Notes: generated by a model not told the origin, from the letters alone. DNA of 64,000 nucleotides from Candidatus Omnitrophota bacterium (GCA_018814825.1 JAHIYJ010000090.1:1321-65320); one strand, 5' to 3'. Positions 5,687 through 63,250 are shown, numbered from the stretch's first letter. Translations and numbers: made by a program.

Positions 5687-5746
5687 AAAATGAGTGCTTG
5701 GTTATCAGCAGCTGATAGCTGATAACTGATAGCTGAAAGCTGATAT
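5687..5746. repeat. Heptamer-periodic inverted repeat, (AGCTGAT)n with a GTTATCAGC/GCTGATAAC stem
   Basis: The sequence reads gttatcagcagctgatagctgataactgatagctgaaagctgatat. The 7-nt register is visible by eye. Confidence 0.6.
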
Positions 5747-8272: not shown

Positions 8273-9105
8273 CGAAAGAGATAAAGATAGGGAATATAAA
8301 GATAGGCGGCAATAATACCATTACCTTAATCGCCGGGCCATGTGTTATCGAGAGCGAGCGGCACGCCATGCGTCACGCGGAAGCTATCAAAAAGATATGC
8401 GGTAAACAAGAGATATCTTTTATATACAAATCCAGCTATGACAAGGCGAACCGCTCAAATGTCAAATCTTACAGGGGGCCTGGCATAGAAAAGGGCCTTA
8501 AAATACTGGCGAAGGTAAAGAAAGAAACAGGTGTTCCTGTATTAAGCGATGTACACTGCAGGGCGGAGCTTTCAGAAGCGTCTGGTGTCCTTGATATCAT
8601 CCAGATACCGGCTTTTTTATGCAGGCAGACGGATTTCATAGTAGAAGCGGCAAAGACAAAAAAGGTCATCAATGTGAAAAAGGGCCAGTTCCTTGCGCCA
8701 TGGGACATAAAAAACATAGTAGAAAAAATAGAGGTCAGCGGCAATAAAAATATCATCATTACGGAACGCGGCACGATGTTCGGGTACAATAATTTAGTCA
8801 GTGATTTCAGGTCCCTGGATATAATGAGAGAGTTTGGCTATCCTGTGGTTTATGACGCGACTCACAGTGTCCAGCTGCCGGGGGGCAGAGGTTCTTCTTC
8901 GGGCGGAGATAGGAAGTTTGTGGCGTCTCTTTCCCGCGCGGCAGTAGCTGTCGGGTGCGATGGATTATTTTTGGAAGTACACGAAAACCCAGACAAAGCG
9001 CCATGCGATGGCCCGAATATGATTGATTTGAAGACGCTGGAAAAATTATTGAGTGAAGTCAAAGATATAAATCGGGTAATATTTCAAACCCGCATTGCAA
9101 TTTAA
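8269..9105 (+). CDS. kdsA: 2-dehydro-3-deoxyphosphooctonate aldolase (Kdo-8-P synthase)
   Basis: [46 protein letters not shown]. 278 aa. Confidence 0.9.
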
Positions 9106-12481: not shown

Positions 12482-12847
12482 ATGGATAAGAAAAAGATAC
12501 TGGTGGTAGACGATGACCCTGATTTGCTTAGGATGCTGAAACTCAGGATGGAATCGGAAGGCTATGAGTTTTTGTCAGCTCAGGACGGAGAAGAGATGTT
12601 AAAGATAATGAAGGCTAAAAGGCCGGATGCCGTGCTTTTGGATATAATGCTTCCCAAGGTTGACGGGTATACTGCGTTACGCGAGATGAGAAAAGAAGAT
12701 TCCTTTAAAGATACACCTGTGATAGTTATGACCGCGAAAGAGCAAAAAAAAGTAGGAGATCTGTTTGCGCTCGAAAAAGTAGCATTTTTCGTGGAAAAAC
12801 CTTTTGATTCAAAAGACTTGTTAGAGAAAATAAAAGAGGTGTTATGA
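12482..12847 (+). CDS. Single-domain CheY-like response regulator (paralog 1 of 3)
   Basis: ILVVDDDPD..DAVLLDIMLPKVDGY..VIVMTAKE..EKPF. Confidence 0.8.
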   Translation: MDKKKILVVDDDPDLLRMLKLRMESEGYEFLSAQDGEEMLKIMKAKRPDAVLLDIMLPKVDGYTALREMRKEDSFKDTPVIVMTAKEQKKVGDLFALEKVAFFVEKPFDSKDLLEKIKEVL

Positions 12848-13215
12848 TGAACAGAAAAAGGATACTTATAGTGGATGATGAGGATGACCTGAGAAAGATG
12901 TTGAGGTTCAGGTTGGAGGCGGCGGGGTATGATATTGATGAAGCCGGCGATGGACAGGAAGGCCTTGATAAGGCGAGGTCTCACTGGCCGGATCTGATTC
13001 TGCTGGATCTTATGCTTCCCAAGATCGACGGTTACAAGGTATGCAGGATGCTCAAGTTTGATGAGAAGCATAAGCATAAACCTGTTATCATGTTCACTGC
13101 GCGCGCCCAGGAGAAAGACATGGAGCTCGGCAAAGAAATGGGGGCTGACGCGTATATAACCAAACCATTTGAGCCTAAGGTTCTTTTGGATAAGATAAAG
13201 GAATTATTAAAATAG
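12844..13215 (+). CDS. Single-domain CheY-like response regulator (paralog 2 of 3)
   Basis: ILIVDDEDD..DLILLDLMLPKIDGY..VIMFTAR..TKPF. The start overlaps the upstream stop. Confidence 0.8.
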   Translation: MMNRKRILIVDDEDDLRKMLRFRLEAAGYDIDEAGDGQEGLDKARSHWPDLILLDLMLPKIDGYKVCRMLKFDEKHKHKPVIMFTARAQEKDMELGKEMGADAYITKPFEPKVLLDKIKELLK

Positions 13216-13256
13216 CGTATAGCGGGCAGCGTTTAGCGGATAGGAAAAACTAAAAC

Positions 13257-13643
13257 ATGGAGGATAATATGCCAGGCCAAAAAAAGATTCTTGTGATTGA
13301 TGACGAAGAGGACATACTGAAGCTCCTTAAGATAAGGCTGGAGCAGGAAAATTTCAATATCATAACTGCCTCTGACGGTGACGTGGGCGTGAAGGCGGCT
13401 GAACAGGAAGTGCCGGATCTGATCATTCTTGATATCATGATGCCTAAGATGGACGGCTATAGCTGTCTTAAGGAGATAAGAGGCCTTCCGAAGACAAAGG
13501 ATATCCCTGTTCTTATGCTGAGCGGGAAGGAAGAGGAAAAGGTGCGGGATCTATTCGCATTTCAGAAAATAAGCGGTTATATAGAGAAGCCATTTGAGCT
13601 GGATAATGTAGTGGCAAAGGTAAAAGAGATACTTAATAGATAA
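13257..13643 (+). CDS. Single-domain CheY-like response regulator (paralog 3 of 3)
   Basis: ILVIDDEED..DLIILDIMMPKMDGY..VLMLSGK..EKPF. ATG 13269 is an alternative start. Confidence 0.8.
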   Translation: MEDNMPGQKKILVIDDEEDILKLLKIRLEQENFNIITASDGDVGVKAAEQEVPDLIILDIMMPKMDGYSCLKEIRGLPKTKDIPVLMLSGKEEEKVRDLFAFQKISGYIEKPFELDNVVAKVKEILNR

Positions 13644-13659: not shown

Positions 13660-15354
13660 ATGTCAGGGAAACAGAAAAAAGCTTTAGGTGAGAGCCTTGT
13701 GGAAGAGGGCATAATAACAGCTGAGCAGTTGAAACAGGCTAAGACAGAAGAAAAACGTTCGGGTCTCAGGTTAAGAAAAGCCCTCGTGAAAACAGGGTTG
13801 ATTACGGAAGAAGACCTTGTAATGTTTCTGAGCGGTAAGCTAGGTATACCACGGATAGAGCTAGGCAGTTATTTGATAGACTCTAAAGTAACGGAATTGG
13901 TGTCGGAGGATCTGGCGCGGAAATACGAGCTTATACCGATATTTAAAATAGGCAATCGTCTCACCTGCGCCATGGTCGATCCCTGGAATGTATTTGCCCT
14001 GGATGAGATAAGGCTCAAGACAAATTTGATTATAGAGCCTGCGGTGGCGACAGAGGCTGAGATAAAAAAGGCCCTGGATGAACATTATGGCGCGAAGGGG
14101 ACCATGGAAGACGTGATAAAGTCTATTGATGAGAAAGGCATTGGCGCAAAGGACGGAAAAGAAATAGACCTCAAGGAATTAGAGGGAATCGCTGAAGAGC
14201 CAGTAGTCATAAAATTGGTAAATCTGATTATAATGAAGGCTGTCCGCGAAGGCGCCAGCGATATCCATATAGAGCCCGAAGAGGATACGCTAAAGACGAG
14301 ATTCAGGGTAGATGGCGTGTTACACGAGGTATCTGCCTCGCCTAAACATCTTCAATCAGCAATTATTTCAAGGATTAAGATAATGGCGAATCTGGACATA
14401 GCGGAGAGGAGGGCGCCTCAGGACGGCAGGTTCACGCTCAAGATGGAAGGCAGGGAGATCGATATACGGGTTTCCTGTATGCCTACCATATATGGAGAGA
14501 ATGTCGTATTGCGAATATTGGATGTATCGAGTGCCCTATTGGACTTCAAAGATACGGGTTTTTCAGAAGATATTTTAGAAAAATATCAGAAACTTATTTT
14601 TCATCCGCATGGCATGATATTGGTCACTGGACCGACAGGATGCGGGAAAACTACCACGCTTTATGTCTCATTGGACAAAATAAATACAGTTGAGAAGAAT
14701 ATTATAACTATTGAAGATCCCGTTGAGTATAAACTATCTGGTATAAGGCAAATGCAGGTGAATCCCAAGGTAGATCTGACGTTTGCCAATGGTTTGAGGT
14801 CGATGTTAAGACAGGATCCTGACGTGATAATGGTAGGCGAGATCAGAGATTTCCAGACAGCAGAGATAGCGATTCACGCTGCCCTGACCGGGCATCTGGT
14901 CTTTTCCACGCTCCACACGAATGACGCGGCAGGGGCATTAACGAGGATGATTGATATGGGTGTCGAGCCGTTTCTTGTCTCCTCTTCCCTAATTGCTGTC
15001 TTGGCGCAGAGGCTTGTGAGGACTATCTGTAAGGATTGCAAAGAAGAATATACCCCGACAGAGGAAACCATGCGAGACATCGGCCTTCTCGACGAGCGAC
15101 GAATAAAATTCTATCGCGGCAAAGGCTGTTCCAAATGCATGAATACAGGCTATAAAGGCAGGATCGGGATATTTGAGTTGATGCCAATAGATGAGAATAT
15201 ACGCAAACTGACTATAGCCAGAGCGCCGCATGATGAGGTCAAAAAACAGGCTATAGCCTCAGGCATGATAACGCTGAAACAGGACGGCATTAAAAAGGTA
15301 AAAGAAGGTATTACTACTGTTGAAGAGATGCTTCGCGTGATCCAGGAGGAGTAA
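13660..15354 (+). CDS. pilB: Type II/IV filament assembly ATPase (GspE/PilB family), copy 1
   Basis: N-terminal T2SSE_N-like domain. Walker A GPTGCGKTTT and a C-terminal tetracysteine motif (CKDC..CSKC). 564 aa. Confidence 0.9.
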   Translation: MSGKQKKALGESLVEEGIITAEQLKQAKTEEKRSGLRLRKALVKTGLITEEDLVMFLSGKLGIPRIELGSYLIDSKVTELVSEDLARKYELIPIFKIGNRLTCAMVDPWNVFALDEIRLKTNLIIEPAVATEAEIKKALDEHYGAKGTMEDVIKSIDEKGIGAKDGKEIDLKELEGIAEEPVVIKLVNLIIMKAVREGASDIHIEPEEDTLKTRFRVDGVLHEVSASPKHLQSAIISRIKIMANLDIAERRAPQDGRFTLKMEGREIDIRVSCMPTIYGENVVLRILDVSSALLDFKDTGFSEDILEKYQKLIFHPHGMILVTGPTGCGKTTTLYVSLDKINTVEKNIITIEDPVEYKLSGIRQMQVNPKVDLTFANGLRSMLRQDPDVIMVGEIRDFQTAEIAIHAALTGHLVFSTLHTNDAAGALTRMIDMGVEPFLVSSSLIAVLAQRLVRTICKDCKEEYTPTEETMRDIGLLDERRIKFYRGKGCSKCMNTGYKGRIGIFELMPIDENIRKLTIARAPHDEVKKQAIASGMITLKQDGIKKVKEGITTVEEMLRVIQEE

Positions 15355-15420
15355 CCTTATCGTTTACCGTGTACCGTTTACCGCACGAGACGGTACACGG
15401 TAAACTGTAAGCGAAACACG
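15355..15420. repeat. Heptamer-periodic hairpin (CGTTTAC/CGTGTAC units; 15-bp stem TTTACCGTGTACCGT / ACGGTACACGGTAAA)
   Basis: The sequence reads cgtttaccgtgtaccgtttaccgcacgagacggtacacggtaaactgtaagcgaaacacgg, lying between pilB and pilC. Confidence 0.65.
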
Positions 15421-15431
15421 GAGGTTTTAAG

Positions 15432-16646
15432 TTGCCTACTTACATTTATAAAGCCAGGGATGCCACAGGTAAGTTAGTGAAAGGCACCATGGACGCGTCC
15501 AATAGAGACGAACTTACAGAGAAACTCCAAAGAATGGGGTATATGACTACCTATGCCGCGGAGATCACTCCCGGAGTCAGGGTCGAATCTATATTTGAAA
15601 GGATGAGGAGGATAAGCGCCGAGGACATGATAATATTTAATGTCCAGCTCGCCAATATGATAAATTCAGGTATACCTATTCTGGTCTGCCTGGATACGCT
15701 GGATAAACAGATTGAAAACAGGACGCTGAGGATCACCGTCGGTAATGTGAAGAGAAATCTTGAGTCAGGCGACAGCTTCTCTCAGGCCCTGGCGAGGCAC
15801 CCGCGGGTATTCTCCAAGTTATTTATAAATATGGTAAAGACCGGTGAGGCCAGCGGAAAGCTGGATACTGTTTTGACCGGGTTTGCTGAATTTACTGAAC
15901 GACAGGAAGAGTTAAAGCAGAAGATTAAAGGTGCGCTTTTTTACCCGATCATACTTTTATTCGCCGGTATCGCGGTCACGATTTTCATAGTTACTTTTAT
16001 TATCCCTCAGTTTGCCGAGATTTTCATGAAGGTAGGCATAAAATTACCCGCGCCTACATTGATCCTTTATAGGATTGGGACGGCCATCAAGAGTTACTGG
16101 TATTTAATAGGCCTTTTTTTTGCGGTAACATGCATAGGCGTAAAATATTATATAAGGACAGAAAAAGGTAGATTTAATTTTGATAGACTTAAATTAAAAG
16201 CACCTGTGCTTGGCCCATTGTTTCGTAAAGTGGCGATATCGAGATTTGCCAGGACATTGGCGACGCTTGTCTCAAGCGGTGTTTCTATATTGGTATCACT
16301 GGATATTACAAAGGAGGTAATTGGGAATGAAGTACTGAGTCGTGTTATTACAAATGTCCGCGCTTCTGTTGAGAAAGGAGAAGGCATTGCCGAGAGCCTG
16401 AAGATAAGCGGGGAATTCCCCCAGGATACAGTGCAGATGATCTCGGTAGGAGAGGAGACAGGAAATTTAGAGGGCATGCTGAATAAGATCTCGGATTTTT
16501 ACAATATGTCTTTAGGATACACCATAAAAAAGTTGACTACTATAATAGAGCCTTTATTTTTGGTCATCATGGGGAGCATGGTGGGTTTTATCATGGCGTC
16601 GATGCTTTTACCGATGTTTGACATGATGAAGGTATTGAGACATTGA
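15432..16646 (+). CDS. pilC: Inner-membrane platform protein (GspF/PilC family), copy 1
   Basis: Apparent TTG start after GGAGG. MPTYIYKARDATGK.. plus two T2SSF repeats. 404 aa. Confidence 0.85.
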   Translation: MPTYIYKARDATGKLVKGTMDASNRDELTEKLQRMGYMTTYAAEITPGVRVESIFERMRRISAEDMIIFNVQLANMINSGIPILVCLDTLDKQIENRTLRITVGNVKRNLESGDSFSQALARHPRVFSKLFINMVKTGEASGKLDTVLTGFAEFTERQEELKQKIKGALFYPIILLFAGIAVTIFIVTFIIPQFAEIFMKVGIKLPAPTLILYRIGTAIKSYWYLIGLFFAVTCIGVKYYIRTEKGRFNFDRLKLKAPVLGPLFRKVAISRFARTLATLVSSGVSILVSLDITKEVIGNEVLSRVITNVRASVEKGEGIAESLKISGEFPQDTVQMISVGEETGNLEGMLNKISDFYNMSLGYTIKKLTTIIEPLFLVIMGSMVGFIMASMLLPMFDMMKVLRH

Positions 16647-16686
16647 TCTCGTATATCGTATGTAGTATGTCGTATATAGTATATCG
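16647..16686. repeat. Heptamer tandem repeat (TCGTATA/TCGTATG units), forward orientation
   Basis: The sequence reads tctcgtatatcgtatgtagtatgtcgtatatagtatatcg, immediately after the pilC stop. Confidence 0.65.
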
Positions 16687-16725
16687 TTTTTCATTGAACA
16701 CTGAATGCAAAAAAAGGGGGTGGTT

Positions 16726-17175
16726 ATGAGAAAAGGTTTTACACTAATTGAGCTATTGATAGTCATTGCGGTGATATCTATCCTGATCGGGATCGCTCTC
16801 CCGCGTTTTAAGGGGATGCAGGATGAAGGAAATATTGCCAAAGCAAAGGGAGAATTAAAAACGCTTCAAGTCGCAGTAGAGAGTTATTATATCCATAATA
16901 ATAATACCTATCCAGCCACAGGTTCTGCAGCGCTTGAGACAGCATTAGCCAGCGCCACCCCTAGCATCATAACTTCTGTGCCTACGGATCCTTTTCGTTC
17001 TACCGGGGCGGATTATGTATATGTAAGAGGTGGTACAAACGGCAAATACTATATTATTTATTCTGTGGGGCCGGGCGGCAATGGAAGCGCGTCTATATCG
17101 AGCAATGCAGTCAGCGAGACGAATGGCTCGAGCTGCATCTATGTCTCTAATATGGGGGAGGATGTACAGCCATAA
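16726..17175 (+). CDS. gspG: Major pseudopilin / type IV pilin, GspG-like (short MRKG leader, class III signal)
   Basis: MRKG|FTLIELLIVIAVISILIGIALP, then ..YP..LP/VPTDPF..YYIIYSVGPGGNG, which resembles the GspG C-terminal signature. The ATG at 16726 follows GGGGGTGG. The listed ORF starts earlier, at 16705. Confidence 0.65.
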   Translation: MRKGFTLIELLIVIAVISILIGIALPRFKGMQDEGNIAKAKGELKTLQVAVESYYIHNNNTYPATGSAALETALASATPSIITSVPTDPFRSTGADYVYVRGGTNGKYYIIYSVGPGGNGSASISSNAVSETNGSSCIYVSNMGEDVQP

Positions 17176-17210
17176 CTCGTATGTAGTATGTCGTACATAG
17201 CATATCGTAA
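17176..17210. repeat. Heptamer tandem repeat (forward type), left flank of the four-helix-bundle gene
   Basis: The sequence reads ctcgtatgtagtatgtcgtacatagcatatcgtaa. Confidence 0.6.
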
Positions 17211-17211
17211 T

Positions 17212-17574
17212 ATGGATAAGAAGATCAGAAGTTTTAAGGATTTGAAAATTTGGCGAAAAGGTATAGAGATTGTCAAAGATACTTACGGGCTAACAGAGAG
17301 CTTTCCAGATAAAGAATTATATGGTTTAACGTCTCAGATGAGAAAGGCAGCTGTATCTCTGCCGTCAAATATAGCTGAAGGATTTAAAAGGTATCATAAT
17401 AAAGAATATAAGCAATTTTTACATATAGCCTTAGGATCAGCGGCAGAATTGGAAACACAGTTTATAATAGCACAAGAGCTTGACTATATTAACAAGGAAG
17501 AACTCGAAAATATCTCAGAAAAGTTAGATCATCTTTCAAAGATGATAACTGCCTTAATACATAAGTTAAGATAA
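17212..17574 (+). CDS. Four-helix-bundle protein (23S rRNA intervening-sequence protein family, PF05635-like)
   Basis: FPDKELYGLTSQMRKAAVSLPSNIAEGFKR is the hallmark motif of this family. About 120 aa. It lies between inverted copies of the heptamer repeat. Confidence 0.75.
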   Translation: MDKKIRSFKDLKIWRKGIEIVKDTYGLTESFPDKELYGLTSQMRKAAVSLPSNIAEGFKRYHNKEYKQFLHIALGSAAELETQFIIAQELDYINKEELENISEKLDHLSKMITALIHKLR

Positions 17575-17963
17575 TGACATGCCTACGATATACGATATAC
17601 GATATACGATATACGAAATGTGGGTTCACTCTACTCGAGATCCTGATTACCATCATCATCCTCACAATAGGCGTGGTTACATTGACCAGCGCTTTTAGTT
17701 CAGGGCTCTTCGCCACTACCGATGTTGAGAATGTGGATCTGGCATTAAATATTGCGCAGGCAAAGATGGAGCAGATCAAGAATACAGCCTTTGCCAGTTT
17801 AGTTGACAGCGGGCCTACTGCTGATGCGAATTTCTCGAACTTTAACGTAACCGTAGATGTGGCCGAGGGCGATGATCCTATGCAGGTGGATGTTACAGTT
17901 AGTTGGAATGTTAAAGGCGGCTCGCCGAGCATTACGTTGACGACGCTGGTCGTTGATTACTGA
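17574..17963 (+). CDS. Minor pseudopilin, GspI/PilV-like; the predicted leader MTCLRYTIYDIRYTKCG is encoded by heptamer repeats
   Basis: The prepilin motif G|FTLLEILITIIILTIGVV is followed by ALNIAQAKMEQIKN. The only in-frame ATG upstream of the cleavage site is 17574, which overlaps the TAA of the previous gene as TAATG. Confidence 0.6.
   Translation: MTCLRYTIYDIRYTKCGFTLLEILITIIILTIGVVTLTSAFSSGLFATTDVENVDLALNIAQAKMEQIKNTAFASLVDSGPTADANFSNFNVTVDVAEGDDPMQVDVTVSWNVKGGSPSITLTTLVVDY
17583..17610. repeat. (CGATATA)n heptamer repeat, reverse orientation, inside the 5' coding end of the GspI-like gene
   Basis: The sequence reads cctacgatatacgatatacgatatacgaa. Confidence 0.65.
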
Positions 17964-17964
17964 T

Positions 17965-17985
17965 TATCGTATATAGTATATCGTA
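17965..17985. repeat. Heptamer repeat, forward type (TCGTATATAGTATATCG)
   Basis: Nearly the reverse complement of 18044..18060, with one mismatch. Confidence 0.6.
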
Positions 17986-17987
17986 AA

Positions 17988-18590
17988 ATGCAAAACCATA
18001 ATTCAAAACTAGGATTATTAAACCCCCAATTTTTACCCAAAAAGCGATATACGATATACGACATACGACATACGAAACAAGGTTTAACTCTCATTGAGCT
18101 AATGATAACAATCGCGATGTTCAGTATTCTGGCAGTAGTTACCGTATATATATTTCGAGCGGTTTTATTAAGCTGGTCAAGTCAGGAGACAAGGGCAGGG
18201 ATTGATATAGTCCTTGATAGAGGCATAGAAGAGATGGTGCGGGATTTAAGAGAGGCAAAAGAGATTCAATCCACTGGCGGTTATGACGAGATAAGATTTT
18301 CACAGGACCAGAGCACTTATTATATCTACTACCTTTATAATGCCAGAGATTCTTATGCTCCTCCGCCAGCCTTTGACCAGACTGTATACGAATTGAGGAA
18401 AGCGGTTTTAACAGGAGATATAAACGGAAGTTTTACGTATGGCTCAGGCCAGATTATAATAACCGATGTCCTTCCTCCTGCTGTTTCTGATTTGTCCTTG
18501 AGTGGTAATATAGTGGCTATTGACCTGAGTGTTGCCAGGGGCGATGAAGCGATTCGCTCGAGGACCGAAGTGATGCCGAGAAATCTTTGA
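17988..18590 (+). CDS. Minor pseudopilin, GspJ/PilW-like; long repeat-containing leader
   Basis: ..KKRYTIYDIRHTKQG|LTLIELMITIAMFSILAVV. The leader segment MQNHNSKLGLLNPQFLPKK is paralogous to the one in the next gene. Confidence 0.55.
   Translation: MQNHNSKLGLLNPQFLPKKRYTIYDIRHTKQGLTLIELMITIAMFSILAVVTVYIFRAVLLSWSSQETRAGIDIVLDRGIEEMVRDLREAKEIQSTGGYDEIRFSQDQSTYYIYYLYNARDSYAPPPAFDQTVYELRKAVLTGDINGSFTYGSGQIIITDVLPPAVSDLSLSGNIVAIDLSVARGDEAIRSRTEVMPRNL
18044..18078. repeat. (CGATATA/CGACATA)n heptamer repeat, reverse orientation, in-frame within the leader
   Basis: The sequence reads gcgatatacgatatacgacatacgacatacgaaac. Confidence 0.65.
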
Positions 18591-18629
18591 TTCGTATATA
18601 GCATATCGTATGTAGTATATTGTAAAATG
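18591..18629. repeat. Heptamer repeat, forward type
   Basis: The sequence reads ttcgtatatagcatatcgtatgtagtatattgtaaaatg. Confidence 0.6.
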
Positions 18630-19766
18630 ATAGACAAAAACTTAAAACCAGGATTTTTAAACAAATCTTTTTTACTACCAAACGATATACGATATACGAC
18701 ATACGATATACGAAACATGCGATATGCGAAACGAGGCTCTGTCCTGATCATGACTTTCATAATCATGGCAACTCTTATTTCTATAACTTTAGGCTTTTTA
18801 TTTATGATGTCTATACAGCTTAAAGGTTCGGGATATGATGTGGCGAGTTCAAAGGCCCTCTGGCTGGCTGAGGCGGGATTGCAGAAGGTTATTTATCAGA
18901 TCAAAAATAGCTCTAGTTTTAGAGATAATCCGACTACCATAACCGGAAATTTAGAAAATGGGGGTTATTCTGTGAGTGTGAGTAAAAATGGAATCACATA
19001 CTCGCTTAGCTCAACCGGGACAGAATCTGACATATCGAGAACAGTAGAGTTGGATGCAGTTGTCAGCTCAAATGGAGGTAGTTATCCCGATGGCGCCCCT
19101 GAGGCATTTAATTATGCCATGCATTCTTTTGGCAATCACATCAAGTTCAAAGATTCCGAGGGCACTATTAACGGAAATGTGGCCTCGGCCAACAGTGTGC
19201 AAAATTCAGGCGATCCAACGATAAACGGCATCGTAACCAGTAATTCCACCGTACCCACGCCTTTTACGGTTAATATGGCTGGTTATCAGTCTATAGCCGA
19301 TAACGTTGAGAGCAGTAATTATACTTTTACGGAAGGTAATACCTATGGCTCCTCTGGCAGCGAACAAATTTGGTATGTGCAGGGGAATGTTACGATAGAA
19401 GAAAATGTTGCTATCTATGGCACAGTTGTTGCTGAGCATAATGTCACTTTGGGCAGTGAAGATATAACAATCGATGCAGCATCTGGTTACCCCGCTCTCA
19501 TCGCAGGCAATAATATTAGCGGAGATGGATTAGAAAATAGTGCTATAAATGGGTTGATTGCCGCAGAAAACAATATTGATTTTGATAACATCAAAGATGC
19601 TACTATCAATGGGGCAATACTCGCCGGCAATAATATAACTATGAGAGATGGCGAAGATTTTACAGTTAATTACGACTCAGATATAACATCCAATCCGCCC
19701 CCATATTTTAGCGGCTATGGGGGCACTACTACTGTTACGACACAGGGTTGGAATGAGATTACATGA
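18627..19766 (+). CDS. Minor pseudopilin, GspK/PilX-like (PilX_N-like N-terminus, no Glu5), with a large N/G/T-rich C-terminal domain
   Basis: ..RYAKRGSVLIMTFIIMATLISITLGFLFMM..ALWLAEAGLQKV is PilX/GspK-type. An alternative internal start is ATG ~18717 (MRYAKRG..). Confidence 0.55.
   Translation: MIDKNLKPGFLNKSFLLPNDIRYTTYDIRNMRYAKRGSVLIMTFIIMATLISITLGFLFMMSIQLKGSGYDVASSKALWLAEAGLQKVIYQIKNSSSFRDNPTTITGNLENGGYSVSVSKNGITYSLSSTGTESDISRTVELDAVVSSNGGSYPDGAPEAFNYAMHSFGNHIKFKDSEGTINGNVASANSVQNSGDPTINGIVTSNSTVPTPFTVNMAGYQSIADNVESSNYTFTEGNTYGSSGSEQIWYVQGNVTIEENVAIYGTVVAEHNVTLGSEDITIDAASGYPALIAGNNISGDGLENSAINGLIAAENNIDFDNIKDATINGAILAGNNITMRDGEDFTVNYDSDITSNPPPYFSGYGGTTTVTTQGWNEIT
18683..18733. repeat. 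(CGATATA)n heptamer repeat, reverse orientation, 7 units
   Basis: The units read cgatata|cgatata|cgacata|cgatata|cgaaaca|tgcgata|tgcgaaa. Confidence 0.65.
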
Positions 19767-19835
19767 TCGTTTACCGTTACGGTTAACGGTAAACAGCGAG
19801 GCGAAGCCGAGCGGGTAAACGGTAAACGCAACAAG
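19767..19835. repeat. Hairpin repeats of the CGGTAAA/CGTTTAC heptamer family
   Basis: GTTTACCGTT-acggtt-AACGGTAAAC forms a perfect 10-bp stem. It is followed by gggtaaacggtaaacg. Confidence 0.6.
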
Positions 19836-19845
19836 GGATACATAA

Positions 19846-21438
19846 ATGAATGTAAGAGGGGTTTTTCAGAAAGATTACATAGTAGGGCTGGACATCGGAT
19901 CTTCTTCTATAAAATTGGCCAAATTTTTGAAAACTCCGGACGGTTTATGTCTTATAAAGACCGATATAGAAGAGGTTAGCAGCTATGCAGTTGATGAGGC
20001 CTTGCGCGGGAAAGAAATACAAAGTCTTCTAAAAAAAATTACCAGAGGGGTAGATGTAAGCAACTCTAAATTTATTGTCACTATCAATTGTCCCAAGACC
20101 GCCATAAAAAAAGCGATAGTGCCTTATATGCCAAGGACAGAATTGCGTAATGCCATAAGATTGGCGGTAAAGAATTATTTCCCGTTTCCAATAGACGACT
20201 CCTTGGTAGATTTTGAGATATCGGGCGAGGTGATTGAAAAAGGTGTTAAAAAATTTGAGGTCCTGGTCGCGACCTCCCCTAAAAAGACAGTTAACGAATT
20301 TTTATCTATATTGAAGGAAGCAGGTGTAAAACCAGTTTCATTCATTGCCGTTCCTTATGCGATGCAAAGATTAGCCCATGCATTTTATCCTGGCGAGGGC
20401 CAGACAAGGTGTTTTCTTGATATAGGCAGTTGTCATACAGAATTGGTTATATTAAAAGGAAAGGGCCTGGTTTTTTCCCGTAAGATCCCTGTTGCAGGCA
20501 ATGATATTACTAAAGAGATGACAGGAGTTTTGGTCTCGGACAAGGGCAGGACAGAGCTTTCATTGGACGAGGCTGAAAAAATAAAGCGGAAAATAGGGCT
20601 ACCTCCTGAAGGCGAATCAAAGATGATAAATGACAAGATTTCCACGACTCAAATTTTATCTATGATAAGGATGCCTTTGGAGCAATTAGTAAATGAGATA
20701 GAAAGATGTTTTGATTATTACAGGGAAGAGGCGGAAGGCGGAAAGATAGATTCGTTTGTTCTATTAGGCGGAGGCTCTTCTCTCAGGAGACTTACGGATT
20801 TTCTTTCTAAGGAATTAGGAATAGAAGTAAAGTTGTTAAGCTCCCTCGAGGGTATAAAAATTGAGCCTGGGGCAATAGACGGACGCGCGCCCGAACTACA
20901 TAGATTAGCCCTGGCTATAGGCGCGGGTTTAGGTGGGGTAAAGGGGCTTAATCTGCTGCCCCTGGAAATTAAAGAAGAGACGAAAAAAACCTTTAAACGA
21001 GCGGGCATTCAGGCCGTGGTTACAGGGGTTATTATTACTCTGGCCCTTGTCTATATCGGGATGAGAATACAGGTTACGAGTTTTCAGAAAAGGATCGCGG
21101 CCAGCAGGATAGAGATGTTAAGTTTAAAGCCCCAGATGGAACAGGTCAAGGCGCAGAATTTGACAAGCGAGATATTGCGAAATGAGCCATACTGGGAAGA
21201 CGTGTTTAGGGAGTTGAGTAATATAGTTCCTGACGATAGCTATCTTACACAATTTACCATGAAGGACAAGACCTTTAAGATGCGAGGCGTGGTTATATCC
21301 AGTGCGCCTGAAGAGATCTTGTCTGGTTTTATACTTGCGCTTGAAAAGGGTATATTTAAGGACGTGAGGCTTATTAGCACAAAAGAGATCAGAGATACGA
21401 CCGGCAATGAATTTGAATTAGAATGTCGAATCGATTAA
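19846..21438 (+). CDS. PilM-PilN fusion (MshI-like): actin-like ATPase-fold domain + TM + PilN domain
   Basis: IVGLDIGSSSIKLAKF is the PilM N-terminus. The C-terminal third has a TM segment (AVVTGVIITLALVYIG) followed by a PilN-like periplasmic domain. 530 aa. Confidence 0.75.
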   Translation: MNVRGVFQKDYIVGLDIGSSSIKLAKFLKTPDGLCLIKTDIEEVSSYAVDEALRGKEIQSLLKKITRGVDVSNSKFIVTINCPKTAIKKAIVPYMPRTELRNAIRLAVKNYFPFPIDDSLVDFEISGEVIEKGVKKFEVLVATSPKKTVNEFLSILKEAGVKPVSFIAVPYAMQRLAHAFYPGEGQTRCFLDIGSCHTELVILKGKGLVFSRKIPVAGNDITKEMTGVLVSDKGRTELSLDEAEKIKRKIGLPPEGESKMINDKISTTQILSMIRMPLEQLVNEIERCFDYYREEAEGGKIDSFVLLGGGSSLRRLTDFLSKELGIEVKLLSSLEGIKIEPGAIDGRAPELHRLALAIGAGLGGVKGLNLLPLEIKEETKKTFKRAGIQAVVTGVIITLALVYIGMRIQVTSFQKRIAASRIEMLSLKPQMEQVKAQNLTSEILRNEPYWEDVFRELSNIVPDDSYLTQFTMKDKTFKMRGVVISSAPEEILSGFILALEKGIFKDVRLISTKEIRDTTGNEFELECRID

Positions 21439-21448
21439 AGGGGCTGGG

Positions 21449-21958
21449 ATGGAACTTACTAAAGATAGAGCTGCGATAATTATAACGGGTGTGATTGCAG
21501 TAGTTACCTTGGGGGTATATCTATTTTTGTATAGGCCGGCTATTTCCAAATGCAGTGAGGCTGGTTGCGAGTGCAGGATGATTGAATCAGAAGTTTTAAG
21601 GGCCAGAGAGTCAATGTATCTTTTAAAACAGGATGCTGCGAAACGTGTATTCGTGTCAGAAAACAATATATCTGTTGCCATAGATGAGTTGACGAAACAA
21701 GGCAGGTCTAAAGGCATTAATTTTACCTCTATTACCCCGGGAAAAATCGAGAATCCTGGAGATGTCGGGTATAAGATCCTTCCTATAGACATGGAGATAG
21801 AGTCAACTTATAAGGAATTGGCGGTATTTCTGGGTTTACTGGAAGGGCTGAAGGAGAGCCTTGTTACAGTAAAGGATATTGATATTGCCTCCGAAGAGAT
21901 AAGAAGCGCAAAACTAAGGGCCAGATTGATACTGAATATGTATCTTTCATACCAATAG
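21449..21958 (+). CDS. pilO: PilO/GspM-like inner-membrane assembly protein
   Basis: N-terminal TM plus coiled-coil. Size and position match PilO (169 aa). Confidence 0.5.
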   Translation: MELTKDRAAIIITGVIAVVTLGVYLFLYRPAISKCSEAGCECRMIESEVLRARESMYLLKQDAAKRVFVSENNISVAIDELTKQGRSKGINFTSITPGKIENPGDVGYKILPIDMEIESTYKELAVFLGLLEGLKESLVTVKDIDIASEEIRSAKLRARLILNMYLSYQ

Positions 21959-22058
21959 CAGTTATACATGTTTCGTGTACCGTTAACCGCTAACCGTTTA
22001 CCGTAACGGTTCACGATAAACGCTAAACGCTACACGGTAAACGGTAAACGGTAAAGCA
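21959..22058. repeat. About 100-nt array of heptamer repeats (CGTTAAC, CGCTAAC, CGTTTAC ... CGGTAAA x3) with inverted halves
   Basis: The right half reads cgataaa|cgctaaa|cgctaca|cggtaaa|cggtaaa|cggtaaa. It lies between pilO and pilP. Confidence 0.65.
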
Positions 22059-22490
22059 ATGCAGAATAAGAAAATAATAACGTTGATTATTTTAGGGATC
22101 CTAGCTGTCTTTAGCCTGGTTTATGGGATAGTTACTCCTTCAAAGGCAAGGCGCGGGATTTCTCGAGGGCCTATCGAGACTAAAAAGAAAGTGACAATTA
22201 GTGCAGGGGCAGAGACAATTTCTGGGGTAGGACGGCCGCAAAGGACCAGTTTCTCCGACTGGGGCAGAGATCCTTTTTCCGCGGTTTCGACGCTATCCCT
22301 ATCAACAAATATTTCCGATATGAGCCTTACAGGCATACTGTGGGACGACGTGGCGCCTCTCGCCATGATCAATGACAATCTCATAGGAATAGGAGATAAG
22401 ATCGGTGAGTATACTGTGGCGGAGATTAAAAAAGATCGAGTAATCCTGACTGATGGCACCAATGATTATCAACTCACCCTTCCTTATTAA
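22059..22490 (+). CDS. pilP: PilP-like periplasmic protein
   Basis: TM anchor and a C-terminal beta domain (EYTVAEIKKDRVILTDGTNDYQLTL). Position follows PilO. Confidence 0.45.
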   Translation: MQNKKIITLIILGILAVFSLVYGIVTPSKARRGISRGPIETKKKVTISAGAETISGVGRPQRTSFSDWGRDPFSAVSTLSLSTNISDMSLTGILWDDVAPLAMINDNLIGIGDKIGEYTVAEIKKDRVILTDGTNDYQLTLPY

Positions 22491-22604
22491 GATGGAATTG
22501 GCGTAGATTTTATTTATCAGATACTAGGTGGTTAAAAACCAGGATTCAAGGATAGGGTTGCTTATCAAGGGAGATATAGAAAGGCTTATGAAAAAGGACA
22601 CGCC

Positions 22605-23360
22605 ATGAATAACTCTAAGGGCATTAGTTTATTCAGTACTGTTTTGCTGATCGTATTCCTGTTGATTGTGTTTTACCTCATGGGATTCTTTTTAAGTTTC
22701 CAGATAGGCAGTTTGGATGGAGTCAGTCTTGCCTTCCTATGTGTGTTCCTTATTTTAACTTCTTTTTCTTTAGGTACGCTTATAATTTCTTTAGACCCGC
22801 CGTTTTTTAAAAACAGTCTTTCACGGTATGTATCTTTTGTGGCCCTCTTGTTATCTGTCCTTACGCTCATTACCTCTGCAGGCACAGCTGTATTCAAGGT
22901 AATAGTTCTAATAGCCCTTCCCGCACTTTTCTTCCATCTTTTTATTCTAGCAGTTCATGTAGCAAATTTTTTAAGAGAAAGAATAAGTCTGAGGCCTAAG
23001 AGGATAGTGGATTTTAGCGAAAAAAGAAGATATATGCGTATCAAAGGTTATGCGACTGCGCAATATCTGTCAAATGGGAAGAATTGGAAGGGGCTGGGTG
23101 TCTATGATATCAGTGCCTCAGGCATGAGGTTAATTATGCGGGAGGAGATGAATGTAGGCCAGAATATAGAGTTGAAAATAATCATACCCTATGACACCAG
23201 GCCGATCTTTGCTAGAGGCGAGATAATCTGGAAAAGGGAGTTTCTTTTAGAAACAAAGGTATTCCATATCGGAGTAAGATTTATAAAGATTGATTCCTCA
23301 GATGTTTTGAGGTTGTCCCTTAAGCAAGTTTATAGCTTATTTCAGGAGCATGTAACCTGA
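22605..23360 (+). CDS. Polytopic membrane protein with a C-terminal PilZ (c-di-GMP receptor) domain
   Basis: Four or five N-terminal TM segments. The PilZ motifs RRYMR (RxxxR) and DISASG (D/NxSxxG) are intact. Confidence 0.7.
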   Translation: MNNSKGISLFSTVLLIVFLLIVFYLMGFFLSFQIGSLDGVSLAFLCVFLILTSFSLGTLIISLDPPFFKNSLSRYVSFVALLLSVLTLITSAGTAVFKVIVLIALPALFFHLFILAVHVANFLRERISLRPKRIVDFSEKRRYMRIKGYATAQYLSNGKNWKGLGVYDISASGMRLIMREEMNVGQNIELKIIIPYDTRPIFARGEIIWKREFLLETKVFHIGVRFIKIDSSDVLRLSLKQVYSLFQEHVT

Positions 23361-62037: not shown

Positions 62038-63174
62038 ATGAAAAACTATTTACTTACACCAGGGCCGACTCCTGTGCCTCCCGAAGCTCTGGAGTCGATG
62101 GCAAGGCCGATAATACACCACAGGACGCCGCAGTTTCAGGAGATCTTGAAGGAAGTGGAAGACAACCTGAAATATGTATTCCAGACCACAAACCCGGTTC
62201 TTATATTTTCTTCAAGCGGTACAGGCGCAATGGAAGGCGCGGTTACCAGCCTCCTTTCCCCTGGAGATAAGGCCATAGTGGTAAGGGGCGGAAAATTCGG
62301 AGAAAGATGGGGGGAGCTTTGCGCGGCTTACGGCATAGAATTTATCCCCGTGGATGTGGAATGGGGCAAATCGGTTAGTCCGCAGGAGATAAAGAAAATT
62401 CTTGAAGCTGAAGGCTCAAGGCTGAAGGCTGTATATGTAACGCTATGCGAGACTTCAACAGGCGTTACGACTGATATAGAGGCTCTCGCGAAGATCACAA
62501 AAAGTTCCGAGGCTGTCTTGGTGGTTGATGCAATAAGCGCTCTGGGAGCCGTTCCTTTAAAGACTGATGAATGGGGGATTGACGTCGTGGTGTCAGGTTC
62601 GCAGAAGGGGCTGATGATCCCACCCGGGCTCGCGTTTGTAAGCCTGAGTGAAAAGGCCTGGAAACTGGCCGAGGAGTCCACATTGCCAAAGTATTATTTC
62701 AATTTCAAGGCATATAAAAAATCTATCGAGAAAAACGATACGCCTTACACACCGGCCGTGAATCTTATCATGGCCTTAAGAGAGGTTTTAAAACTGATAA
62801 GAAAAGAAGGCATTGATAACCTGATAAACCGCCACAGAAAAAACAGTAAGGCGGTACGGGACGCCGTTAAGGCTCTTGGCCTTGAGCTATTCGCTCCTCA
62901 GGCGTATTCAGAGGCGGTTACCGCGGTCATGGTACCAGAAGGTGTTGACGGAGGCAAACTTGTAAAGACCATGCGTGATAAGTACGGTGTGGCGATCGCC
63001 GGCGGCCAGTCACAGCTAAAAGGGAAAATATTCAGGATAGCCACCATGGGTTACATAACAGAGGATGATTTGAAAAAGGGTTTTGAGGTCCTGGAGATAG
63101 TCCTTGCGGAGCTGGGATATAAATTCGAGAAGAGCGCAGGAGTTAAAGCGCTGGAAAGAGGATTAGCAAGTTAG
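62038..63174 (+). CDS. Class V PLP-dependent aminotransferase (AGXT/SerC-like); possibly the phosphoserine aminotransferase, given the adjacent serA
   Basis: MKNYLLTPGPTPVP.. 378 aa. It is contiguous with a D-3-phosphoglycerate dehydrogenase gene. Confidence 0.65.
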   Translation: MKNYLLTPGPTPVPPEALESMARPIIHHRTPQFQEILKEVEDNLKYVFQTTNPVLIFSSSGTGAMEGAVTSLLSPGDKAIVVRGGKFGERWGELCAAYGIEFIPVDVEWGKSVSPQEIKKILEAEGSRLKAVYVTLCETSTGVTTDIEALAKITKSSEAVLVVDAISALGAVPLKTDEWGIDVVVSGSQKGLMIPPGLAFVSLSEKAWKLAEESTLPKYYFNFKAYKKSIEKNDTPYTPAVNLIMALREVLKLIRKEGIDNLINRHRKNSKAVRDAVKALGLELFAPQAYSEAVTAVMVPEGVDGGKLVKTMRDKYGVAIAGGQSQLKGKIFRIATMGYITEDDLKKGFEVLEIVLAELGYKFEKSAGVKALERGLAS

Positions 63175-63180
63175 AATTAG

Positions 63181-63250
63181 TGAGCTTTCAGCCTTCAGCC
63201 ATCAGCCTTCAGCAGCTGACAGCTGAAAACTGGAAGCTGATGGCTAACAT
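63181..63250. repeat. Heptamer-periodic inverted repeat (YTTCAGC)x4 then (AGCTGAN)x4, forming a hairpin
   Basis: The units read tttcagc|cttcagc|catcagc|cttcagc|agctgac|agctgaa|aactgga|agctgat. Confidence 0.65.

Follow-up and report, generated by a model that had tools for sequence, protein, structure and literature searches.

In Coxiella burnetii, the 23S rRNA intervening sequence (IVS) carries two or three tandem GACAGAT heptamers, the number depending on the strain, just 5' of the S23p open reading frame (ORF), and RNase III cleaves at the first heptamer repeat (PMC4990558). In Xanthomonas, intergenic heptamers (GGGAATC) occur mostly as four units and form about 70 convergent pairs, to which no function has been assigned, and tandem heptamers are over-represented in bacterial intergenic regions (PMC4692102). 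The text of the latter paper mentions none of the terms '23S', 'S23' or 'four helix', and in our incomplete literature collection we found nothing beyond the Coxiella case that ties genes for four-helix-bundle (4HB) proteins to tandem heptamers. Here we analyse a 64,000-nt stretch of DNA from a Candidatus Omnitrophota bacterium (GCA_018814825.1 JAHIYJ010000090.1:1321-65320; hereafter, the window), in which seven blocks of 7-nt repeats lie among the pseudopilin genes of a type II secretion/type IV pilus-like operon. We think it rather probable that these blocks are the inverted arms of an IVS-type 4HB cassette and of its remnants, and that they have been co-opted as coding sequence for prepilin leaders.

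The window cassette resembles the Coxiella IVS, and likewise the IVSs of Leptospira and Brucella that carry an S23p ORF, in that an S23p/PF05635 ORF is bounded by complementary, stem-forming ends; the presence of heptamers at the ORF border is shared with Coxiella as well. The rRNA IVSs, however, lie inside helix 25 or 45 of the 23S rRNA, whereas the window cassette is placed between gspG-like and gspI-like genes, and an Rfam search over 15000-22500 returned no rRNA or other family, even at E<=1. Unlike an IVS, the window cassette also has gene-less derivatives beside it and a right arm that forms part of downstream ORFs. IVS cassettes themselves are known; what is new here is an IVS-type 4HB cassette with its remnants in an mRNA operon, probably co-opted as leader-coding sequence. 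The heptanucleotide repeats of Xanthomonas (GGGAATC) and of Nostoc/Calothrix share with the window intergenic 7-nt units, about four per array and often in convergent pairs, but arrays of the window type flank 4HB genes, also on Nostoc plasmids, and some of them are probably translated.

The operon has the order GspE/PilB, GspF/PilC, GspG-like, GspI/PilV-like, GspJ-like, PilX/GspK-like, PilMN, PilO, and the elements sit exactly between stop and start codons. A full cassette opens with about 4-5 heptamers as its left array, continues with a 4HB gene of about 120 aa and ends in a right array of reverse-complement heptamers. The window contains one complete cassette (F2-4HB-R1), two gene-less mini elements (F3-R2 and F4-R3) and one orphan left arm (F1), all built on one and the same unit, with the following features (an arrow marks the end of a leader; SD, Shine-Dalgarno sequence).

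16646-16689, + strand: F1, orphan left arm of TCGTATR/TAGTATR heptamers, directly 3' of the GspF stop codon.
16726-17175, + strand: GspG-like major pseudopilin, with SD AGGGGG, ATG at 16726 and the canonical leader MRKG↓FTLIE.
17177-17210, + strand: F2, left arm of the complete cassette.
17212-17574, + strand: cassette gene between F2 and R1, encoding a 120-aa 4HB/23S rRNA intervening-sequence protein.
17574-17963, + strand: GspI/PilV-like minor pseudopilin, leader MTCLRYTIYDIRYTKCG↓FTLLE, Gly(-1) codon at 17622-17624.
17584-17619, + strand: R1, right arm, 4.7 perfect copies of CGATATA within the GspI-like leader coding region.
17965-17985, + strand: F3, left arm of mini element 1.
17988-18590, + strand: GspJ-like minor pseudopilin, ATG just 3' of F3, leader MQNHNSKLGLLNPQFLPKKRYTIYDIRHTKQG↓LTLIE, Gly(-1) codon at 18081-18083.
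18045-18078, + strand: R2, right arm of mini element 1, CGATATA x2 and CGACATA x2.
18592-18624, + strand: F4, left arm of mini element 2.
18627-19766, + strand: PilX/GspK-like gene, possible starts at 18627 (via spacer and R3) or 18717 (MRYAKRG↓SVLIM).
18682-18713 (perfect), to 18732 with two degenerate units, + strand: R3, right arm of mini element 2.

All seven blocks are found where the initial annotation of this DNA had placed them, and far above chance expectation, the window holding 13 period-7 blocks against a shuffle mean of 0.76. In the left arms TCGTATR alternates with TAGTATR, so that a 14-nt super-period results, and the right-arm units CGATATA/CGACATA are the reverse complement of the left-arm units. 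The hairpin-forming pairs proposed in that annotation were borne out by folding: the mini pairs F3-R2 and F4-R3 fold at z = -2.9 and -5.8, the F2:R1 stem closes the 471-nt cassette RNA in both the minimum free energy and the centroid structure (duplex free energy, dG, of -31 kcal/mol), and the arm stems measure 25-45 bp and are imperfect. By duplex computation any F arm pairs with any R arm (dG of -21 to -51 kcal/mol), and this includes F1, which has no right arm beside it and could pair with R1-R3 at -40 to -51. The forward-reverse arrangement first described is thus right for F2-R1, F3-R2 and F4-R3, while F1 has no partner of its own.

The initial annotation had overlooked the 120-aa ORF enclosed by blocks 2 and 3. 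Its product matches the 4HB family over its full length (PF05635, 6e-40, 136 bits against a cut-off of 33.8; TIGR02436, 1e-37); its homologues at E<=1e-10 number more than 2,200. The 4HB fold family is shared with Avd of diversity-generating retroelements (DGRs), to which the window protein has a weak match below the curated cut-offs. Its identification as a DGR accessory protein was considered and rejected on these scores (NF033474, 2.9e-7, 30.7 bits against a cut-off of 80; PF22296, 4.6e-7, 30.7 against 40) and on the neighbourhood, which holds only pilin genes; since there is no other ORF between the flanking pilin genes, neither an adjacent reverse transcriptase nor a template/variable repeat pair is present.

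That the arms belong to the 4HB gene family is indicated by a metagenome sample containing 80 loci that encode relatives of the window 4HB protein. Period-7 arrays occurred in 108/154 flanks of these loci, against 25/995 control windows from the same contigs (2.5%) and 0/770 shuffled flanks, and only period 7 was enriched, periods 4-6 and 8-10 being found in at most 1/154 flanks. Upstream and downstream arrays were complementary in 60/82 4HB loci and averaged 29 nt in length; the arrays had a median of 4.3 units, and the tracts were usually imperfect. The element is polar, with a G+T-rich left arm (45/54) and an A+C-rich right arm (45/53), and a [C/A]GT core recurs at fixed phase in 45 of 54 left arms. 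The unit itself varies by locus (CGTATGT, GCGTATT, CGTGAAG, TCGTTGC, AGTGAAT, TTTTCCG and others) and co-varies with the 4HB protein (Mantel r = 0.29, a value reached by 0/2000 permutations), and the arms and the gene have therefore been inherited or moved together. The same association was seen on finished plasmids with 4HB genes from Nostoc (four plasmids), Geminocystis, Stanieria, Pseudanabaena and Riemerella, where one or both flanks of 8/10 genes carried a heptamer array and most arrays were inverted (e.g., GGGAGTA/TCCCTAC, GGGAACA/TGTTCCC and GGTTTAA/AAACCTT); the two 4HB genes of Nostoc PCC 7120 had a clear array downstream only. The association of arms with 4HB genes is therefore neither an artefact of metagenome-assembled genomes (MAGs) nor limited to one phylum, and assembly artefact was ruled out as its source, since the architecture recurs in many independent assemblies as well as on finished plasmids.

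Two further settings of 4HB genes were observed. On the Pseudanabaena galeata plasmid pPg_01 (L123, 45862-47015), the 4HB gene lies between cas6 and cas4 and has arrays of AAAAGCT/AAAAGCC on both sides, one of about 15 and one of about 10 copies, which are direct, not inverted. Many 4HB cassettes are found directly 5' of dnaJ (MAKRDYYEVLGV), as in L048, L051, L060, L061, L067, L072, L090 and L097, with the dnaJ ATG 2-26 nt past the right arm and usually without an SD (about 2860-2900 in loci with the full 2.5-kb flank); the 5' side of dnaJ is a recurrent site of cassette insertion across unrelated contigs.

In another explanation, the arms are purely structural hairpins of the repetitive extragenic palindrome/bacterial interspersed mosaic element (REP/BIME) or miniature inverted-repeat transposable element type, tuning mRNA stability and stoichiometry in the operon, with the 4HB gene and the open frames being incidental. 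Ten of the 13 period-7 blocks of the window lie in the pilus operon, hairpins with other units occur in its untranslated junctions and before SD-bearing starts, and convergent heptamer pairs, mostly of 4 units, are known from Xanthomonas intergenic regions (PMC4692102). REP/BIME and Correia-type elements are likewise small, gene-less inverted repeats that lie in operon gaps and are co-transcribed. Correia elements have been reported as targets of RNase III. The window arms, in contrast, have no fixed consensus but consist of tandem heptamers whose sequence varies, and a protein-coding master copy (the 4HB gene) exists. A purely structural role leaves unexplained both the phylum-spanning linkage to PF05635, together with the co-variation of unit and protein, and the conservation of in-frame starts at prepilin genes described below, and we consider it very unlikely. 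The structural alternative offered by the initial annotation is compatible with our data as an added role at the RNA level but does not exclude translation.

Comparison with relatives bears on how the elements arrived. The nearest relatives by GspF are labelled Omnitrophota or mislabelled Planctomycetia. In the closest, L004 (81% GspF identity), 21 kb contain no heptamer block and the leaders are MRKG↓F, MNG↓F and MHKG↓L; those of L003 are MKKG↓F and MNKG↓L, and those of L005 are (GTG)MVTVTNNKQG↓F and MKKG↓L. In these three relatives the orthologue leaders thus measure 3-10 aa, no window-type element is present at the matching junctions, and the GspG leader is the same as in the window; L005 does have a 4HB cassette, with another unit, at its GspE-GspF junction. 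L064, which has an orthologous GspG-4HB-GspI locus, uses the unit CGAATCA and carries a complete mini element at the junction where the window has F1. Its 4HB protein is only 55% identical to that of the window, whereas 4HB proteins 75-83% identical to the latter are encoded on unrelated contigs, and cassettes therefore turn over at these junctions. At the PilX-like leader and the GspI/GspJ junction of relatives, AGCTATC/GCTGAAG heptamers were also observed in 1 to 4 units (L005 12724-12765; L003 6448-6500; L064 2085-2110; L112 1835-1888), those of L005 and L003 lying within an ORF that overlaps the upstream stop codon.

The origin of the mini elements is suggested by L116, in which a left arm leads into an ATG, 20 codons from the start of a 4HB gene (MKVKSFKALNVWKKGIKTVD) and then a right arm, all fused in frame to G↓FTLLE. 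This arrangement suggests that gene-less mini elements are deletion derivatives of the 4HB cassette, the basis being the L116 fusion and not the window's own spacers; homology of the window mini-spacers to the 4HB 5' end was considered and was not demonstrated statistically. The initial annotation had seen in the similar spacer peptides a duplicated, dedicated coding leader, which is not supported: the likeness is traced to the 4HB cassette and its deletion derivatives, and the leaders resemble one another because they derive from one kind of inserted element.

A consequence for the host genes would be that the right-hand arms are translated. In the GspG-, GspI- and GspJ-like ORFs the prepilin motif, G(-1)/hydrophobic(+1)/E(+5) followed by a hydrophobic helix, is matched by TIGR02532 and PF07963, and the initial readings of the GspI-like and GspJ-like ORFs, ending in FTLLE and LTLIE, and of the MRKG leader of GspG were correct. 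The only canonical in-frame starts are ATG 17574, which overlaps the 4HB stop codon (TAATG), for the GspI-like gene and ATG 17988 for the GspJ-like gene; both are 5' of the right arm, the resulting leaders are 17 aa and, via the spacer and R2, 32 aa, and neither gene has a short basic leader straight after a canonical start. The statement that no in-frame start follows the repeats accordingly holds for these two genes but not for the third, in which the last two units of R3 have decayed to ATGCGAT ATGCGAA, creating an in-frame ATG at 18717 that follows the perfect repeats. The public annotation (GCA_018824945.1, L001 14443-14931) places the GspJ-like start on an internal ATG, window position 18102, giving 162 aa; this call drops the prepilin motif, while the open frame back to 17988 encodes 200 aa and is 38 codons longer. 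Its start codons for GspG and 4HB also differ from those taken here.

Several lines of evidence bear on whether these upstream starts are used: (i) in comparisons of the window with its relatives, GspI has a dN/dS of 0.08-0.10 and GspJ one of 0.07-0.08 (with dS of about 1 for GspI against L064), and since both genes are under purifying selection they must be translated; (ii) all 120 of the 120 closest GspI homologues retain an in-frame start, although they comprise at least 15 distinct leader types and the chance of meeting a start before a stop is roughly even, which makes the complete lack of start loss unlikely without selection; (iii) the major pseudopilin of L064 has AAGGAGG and an ATG 5' of the array and the leader MAKRITNHESRITNNG↓F, and the GspI ATG of L064 overlaps the 4HB stop codon (ATGA), in parallel to TAATG in the window; and (iv) non-prepilin genes downstream of 4HB arrays have a canonical start 1-25 nt past the array in 33/45 cases, whereas the two prepilin genes of this downstream-gene set lack one close to the end of the array and are read from upstream, as are all array-abutted prepilin genes among the loci analysed (5/5 with an upstream in-frame start). 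The leaders of the 120 GspI homologues are bimodal in length, about 50 having 3-7 aa and about 50 at least 13 aa with a peak at 14-15 aa, and many of the long ones are visibly heptamer-encoded (MIRITNHESRITECG, MSKMKNGIRNTEYGIRNTLYGIRNTNHG, MHNRNSYQLSAISYQQLKG). On the dN/dS values, the 120/120 starts and the SD and ATG of L064, we conclude from sequence comparison that the prepilin leaders of the GspI-like and GspJ-like genes likely include the translated right-hand arrays, as the initial annotation had read them. An out-of-frame ATG was also noted at the junction of right arm and prepilin motif, at 17617-17619 in the window, at 1219-1221 and 349-351 in L064 and at about 294-296 in L117 (AAATGTGGG, GAATGTGGA, CAATGGTTTT, TCATGGTTTT); it is placed like the ATG that follows the array in non-pilin genes, but is shifted in frame.

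On this basis we propose the following course of events. The GspI-like and GspJ-like genes would have lost their own ribosome-binding site and ATG to the insertions. The GspI-like start would now be provided by the element, through the ATG overlapping the 4HB stop (TAATG) and thus by coupling, and the GspJ-like start may be the relic start codon of a deleted cassette ORF. The ribosome would read on through the right arm, and prepilin peptidase would cut off the extra residues along with the leader, which would explain why an array inside an ORF is tolerated by prepilin genes only. By analogy with rRNA IVSs, RNase III would be likely to act on the arm stems in the polycistronic RNA, and folding or cleavage of the stems would compete with translation of the minor pseudopilins.

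Leaders of such length have a counterpart. Type IVb prepilins have leaders of 15-30 residues before Gly(-1), which prepilin peptidase removes, and in this respect the GspI-like and GspJ-like proteins of the window would be similar. The window genes, however, encode minor pseudopilins of the type II secretion system type, or type IVa-like, whose orthologues have leaders of 3-7 aa, and it is repeat DNA that codes for the long leaders, which evolve in concert at the DNA level.

A number of observations weigh against the proposed co-option: (i) neither ATG 17574 nor ATG 17988 has an SD; (ii) in-frame near-cognate AUA codons would yield 7-aa leaders, RYTKCG and RHTKQG, parallel to MRYAKRG, the canonical leader of the third gene, and a non-canonical start may therefore be used; (iii) an RNase III cut in F2:R1 would separate ATG 17574 from the body of GspI, and processing and the use of that start are therefore mutually exclusive on any one molecule; (iv) a wobble test (67 sense against 74 antisense G-U-compatible transitions, with 171 transversions) gave no sign of selection on pairing specific to the sense RNA; (v) a six-frame translation of the window had no GxGD(V/I/F)K peptidase A24-like motif of a prepilin peptidase in any real ORF; (vi) no mobility machinery, transposase or target-site duplication was identified; and (vii) all Omnitrophota-type sequences are MAGs or metagenome contigs.

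The first two of these points favour an alternative in which the arrays are untranslated and the GspI-like and GspJ-like genes start at in-frame AUA codons close to the cleavage motif on its 5' side, perhaps using mRNAs whose 5' ends RNase III has made very short, giving the leaders (M)RYTKCG and (M)RHTKQG. The respective sequences, ATA CGA TAT ACG AAA TGT GGG and ATA CGA CAT ACG AAA CAA GGT, do parallel ATG CGA TAT GCG AAA CGA GGC in the third gene, the canonical leaders of relatives are 3-7 aa, and the Coxiella IVS is cleaved at its first heptamer (PMC4990558). If the upstream frame were irrelevant, on the other hand, about half of independent lineages should have lost the start, against 0/120 among at least 15 leader types. 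The strong SD and ATG 5' of the array in the L064 GspG gene, and the overlap of ATG and 4HB stop in the window and L064 alike despite their differing cassettes, argue in the same direction. AUA, moreover, initiates poorly in the bacteria studied. We therefore hold AUA initiation to be unlikely, and co-option of the arms as translated leaders to be the better account of the two genes.

The initial annotation had proposed that the translated arms form a phase-variable contingency locus, in which slipped-strand gain or loss of a 7-nt unit switches the minor pseudopilins ON and OFF. The geometry permits this, since R1 is a perfect 4.7-copy tract within the only canonical ORF (17574-17963) and 7 is not divisible by 3. 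The heptamer copy number beside the Coxiella S23p ORF is 2 in some strains and 3 in others (PMC4990558), and the number of units also differs among homologue leaders, L117, for example, having 9 units of ACGGAAT. Simple sequence repeat contingency loci, such as the 7-bp repeats of the Haemophilus influenzae hmw promoter, likewise place non-triplet repeats in or next to a gene for a surface structure. In contrast to such loci, the window tracts are short and have inverted partners, their copy number is conserved across homologues, and the assemblies compared show no length polymorphism. Within diverged groups the leader length is constant (RITNHES-type, 15 aa, ~5 sequences; LSNVTHQ-type, 15 aa, ~8; RTPGRTPSR-type, 14 aa, ~5), and the leader repeats change in concert at the DNA level (RIT...RIT to RTT...RTT) rather than in number. 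None of the 120 GspI homologues is out of frame; two candidate out-of-frame OFF alleles, P0137 and P0238, proved to be mis-called genes whose DNA shows ordinary leaders, MLKKCG↓F and MVQRS↓F.

The polymorphism expected of such a switch was equally missing between close assemblies. Over 21.7 kb (window 3660-25354), the window and the GCA_018824945.1 contig L001 differ by 22 substitutions without a single indel, and the arrays are identical. The substitutions are partly clustered (8734-8736, 13355-13403), which suggests two close populations or local recombination. The tracts are short (median 4.3 units) and usually imperfect, and the arrays lie mostly in untranslated junctions, such as those preceding non-pilin genes, with a matching inverted partner that a slippage switch would not need. 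ON/OFF phase variation is thus not supported, and we rate it as quite unlikely.

Under the co-option reading, the odd repeats of the pilus operon are identified as parts of a defined element, and a selfish-looking element can seize the translation starts of host genes that nevertheless survive, since what it adds to the protein would lie in the part of the leader that is cleaved off. Annotators should be aware that gene callers shorten such pilin genes and that their leaders may be dismissed as artefacts. More broadly, the results link the widespread genes for 4HB/S23/IVS proteins with the over-represented intergenic tandem heptanucleotides, two subjects treated separately in the papers found; since the link also holds on plasmids of cultured cyanobacteria and Riemerella, it is testable in tractable organisms, and we regard it as a lead deserving follow-up. 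A more far-reaching interpretation, which we put forward tentatively as possible rather than probable, is that the 4HB gene with its inverted heptamer arms represents an unrecognised, phylum-spanning class of intergenic cassette, of which rRNA IVSs would be one special case; that cassettes and their remnants account for much of the heptanucleotide excess in cyanobacteria and of the Xanthomonas GGGAATC repeats; that a pentameric 4HB protein recognises arrays of 4-5 units, as RNA or single-stranded DNA, and so drives their spread or processing; and that the arms found in pilus operons came to serve as coding sequence for cleavable leaders.

Other heptamer hairpins of the window, with different units, are the following.

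15356-15415, + strand: TTACCGT/ACGGTAA hairpin (z = -5.2) at the GspE-GspF junction, followed by an SD and TTG.
About 19767-19830, + strand: hairpin of the GTTTACC/GGTAAAC family at the PilX-like to PilMN junction.
21975-22058, + strand: ACCGTTA/AACGGTA hairpin at the junction of PilO and the next gene.
5690-5746 and 63180-63250: further intergenic heptamer hairpins, units AGCTGAT and TCAGCCT/AGCTGAA.

Several of these lie directly 5' of a start codon, with or without an SD, and none has a 4HB gene between its arms. Promoter-like and terminator-like sites were not above shuffled expectation. A block of 3.5 GAAGGCT units inside an aminotransferase-like ORF (62404-62434 in 62038-63174) is the reverse complement of an intergenic AGCCTTC block (63183-63213) 750 nt downstream, which may be chance or a long-range pair. 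Of the 47 window ORFs of at least 180 aa, 46 are on the + strand, and the remaining one (2181-2729, 182 aa) shares part of its DNA with a longer ORF on the + strand. The pilus operon is preceded on its 5' side by genes for a histidine kinase and three tandem single-domain response regulators (12482-13643), and a PilZ-domain protein is encoded 3' of it at 22605-23360.

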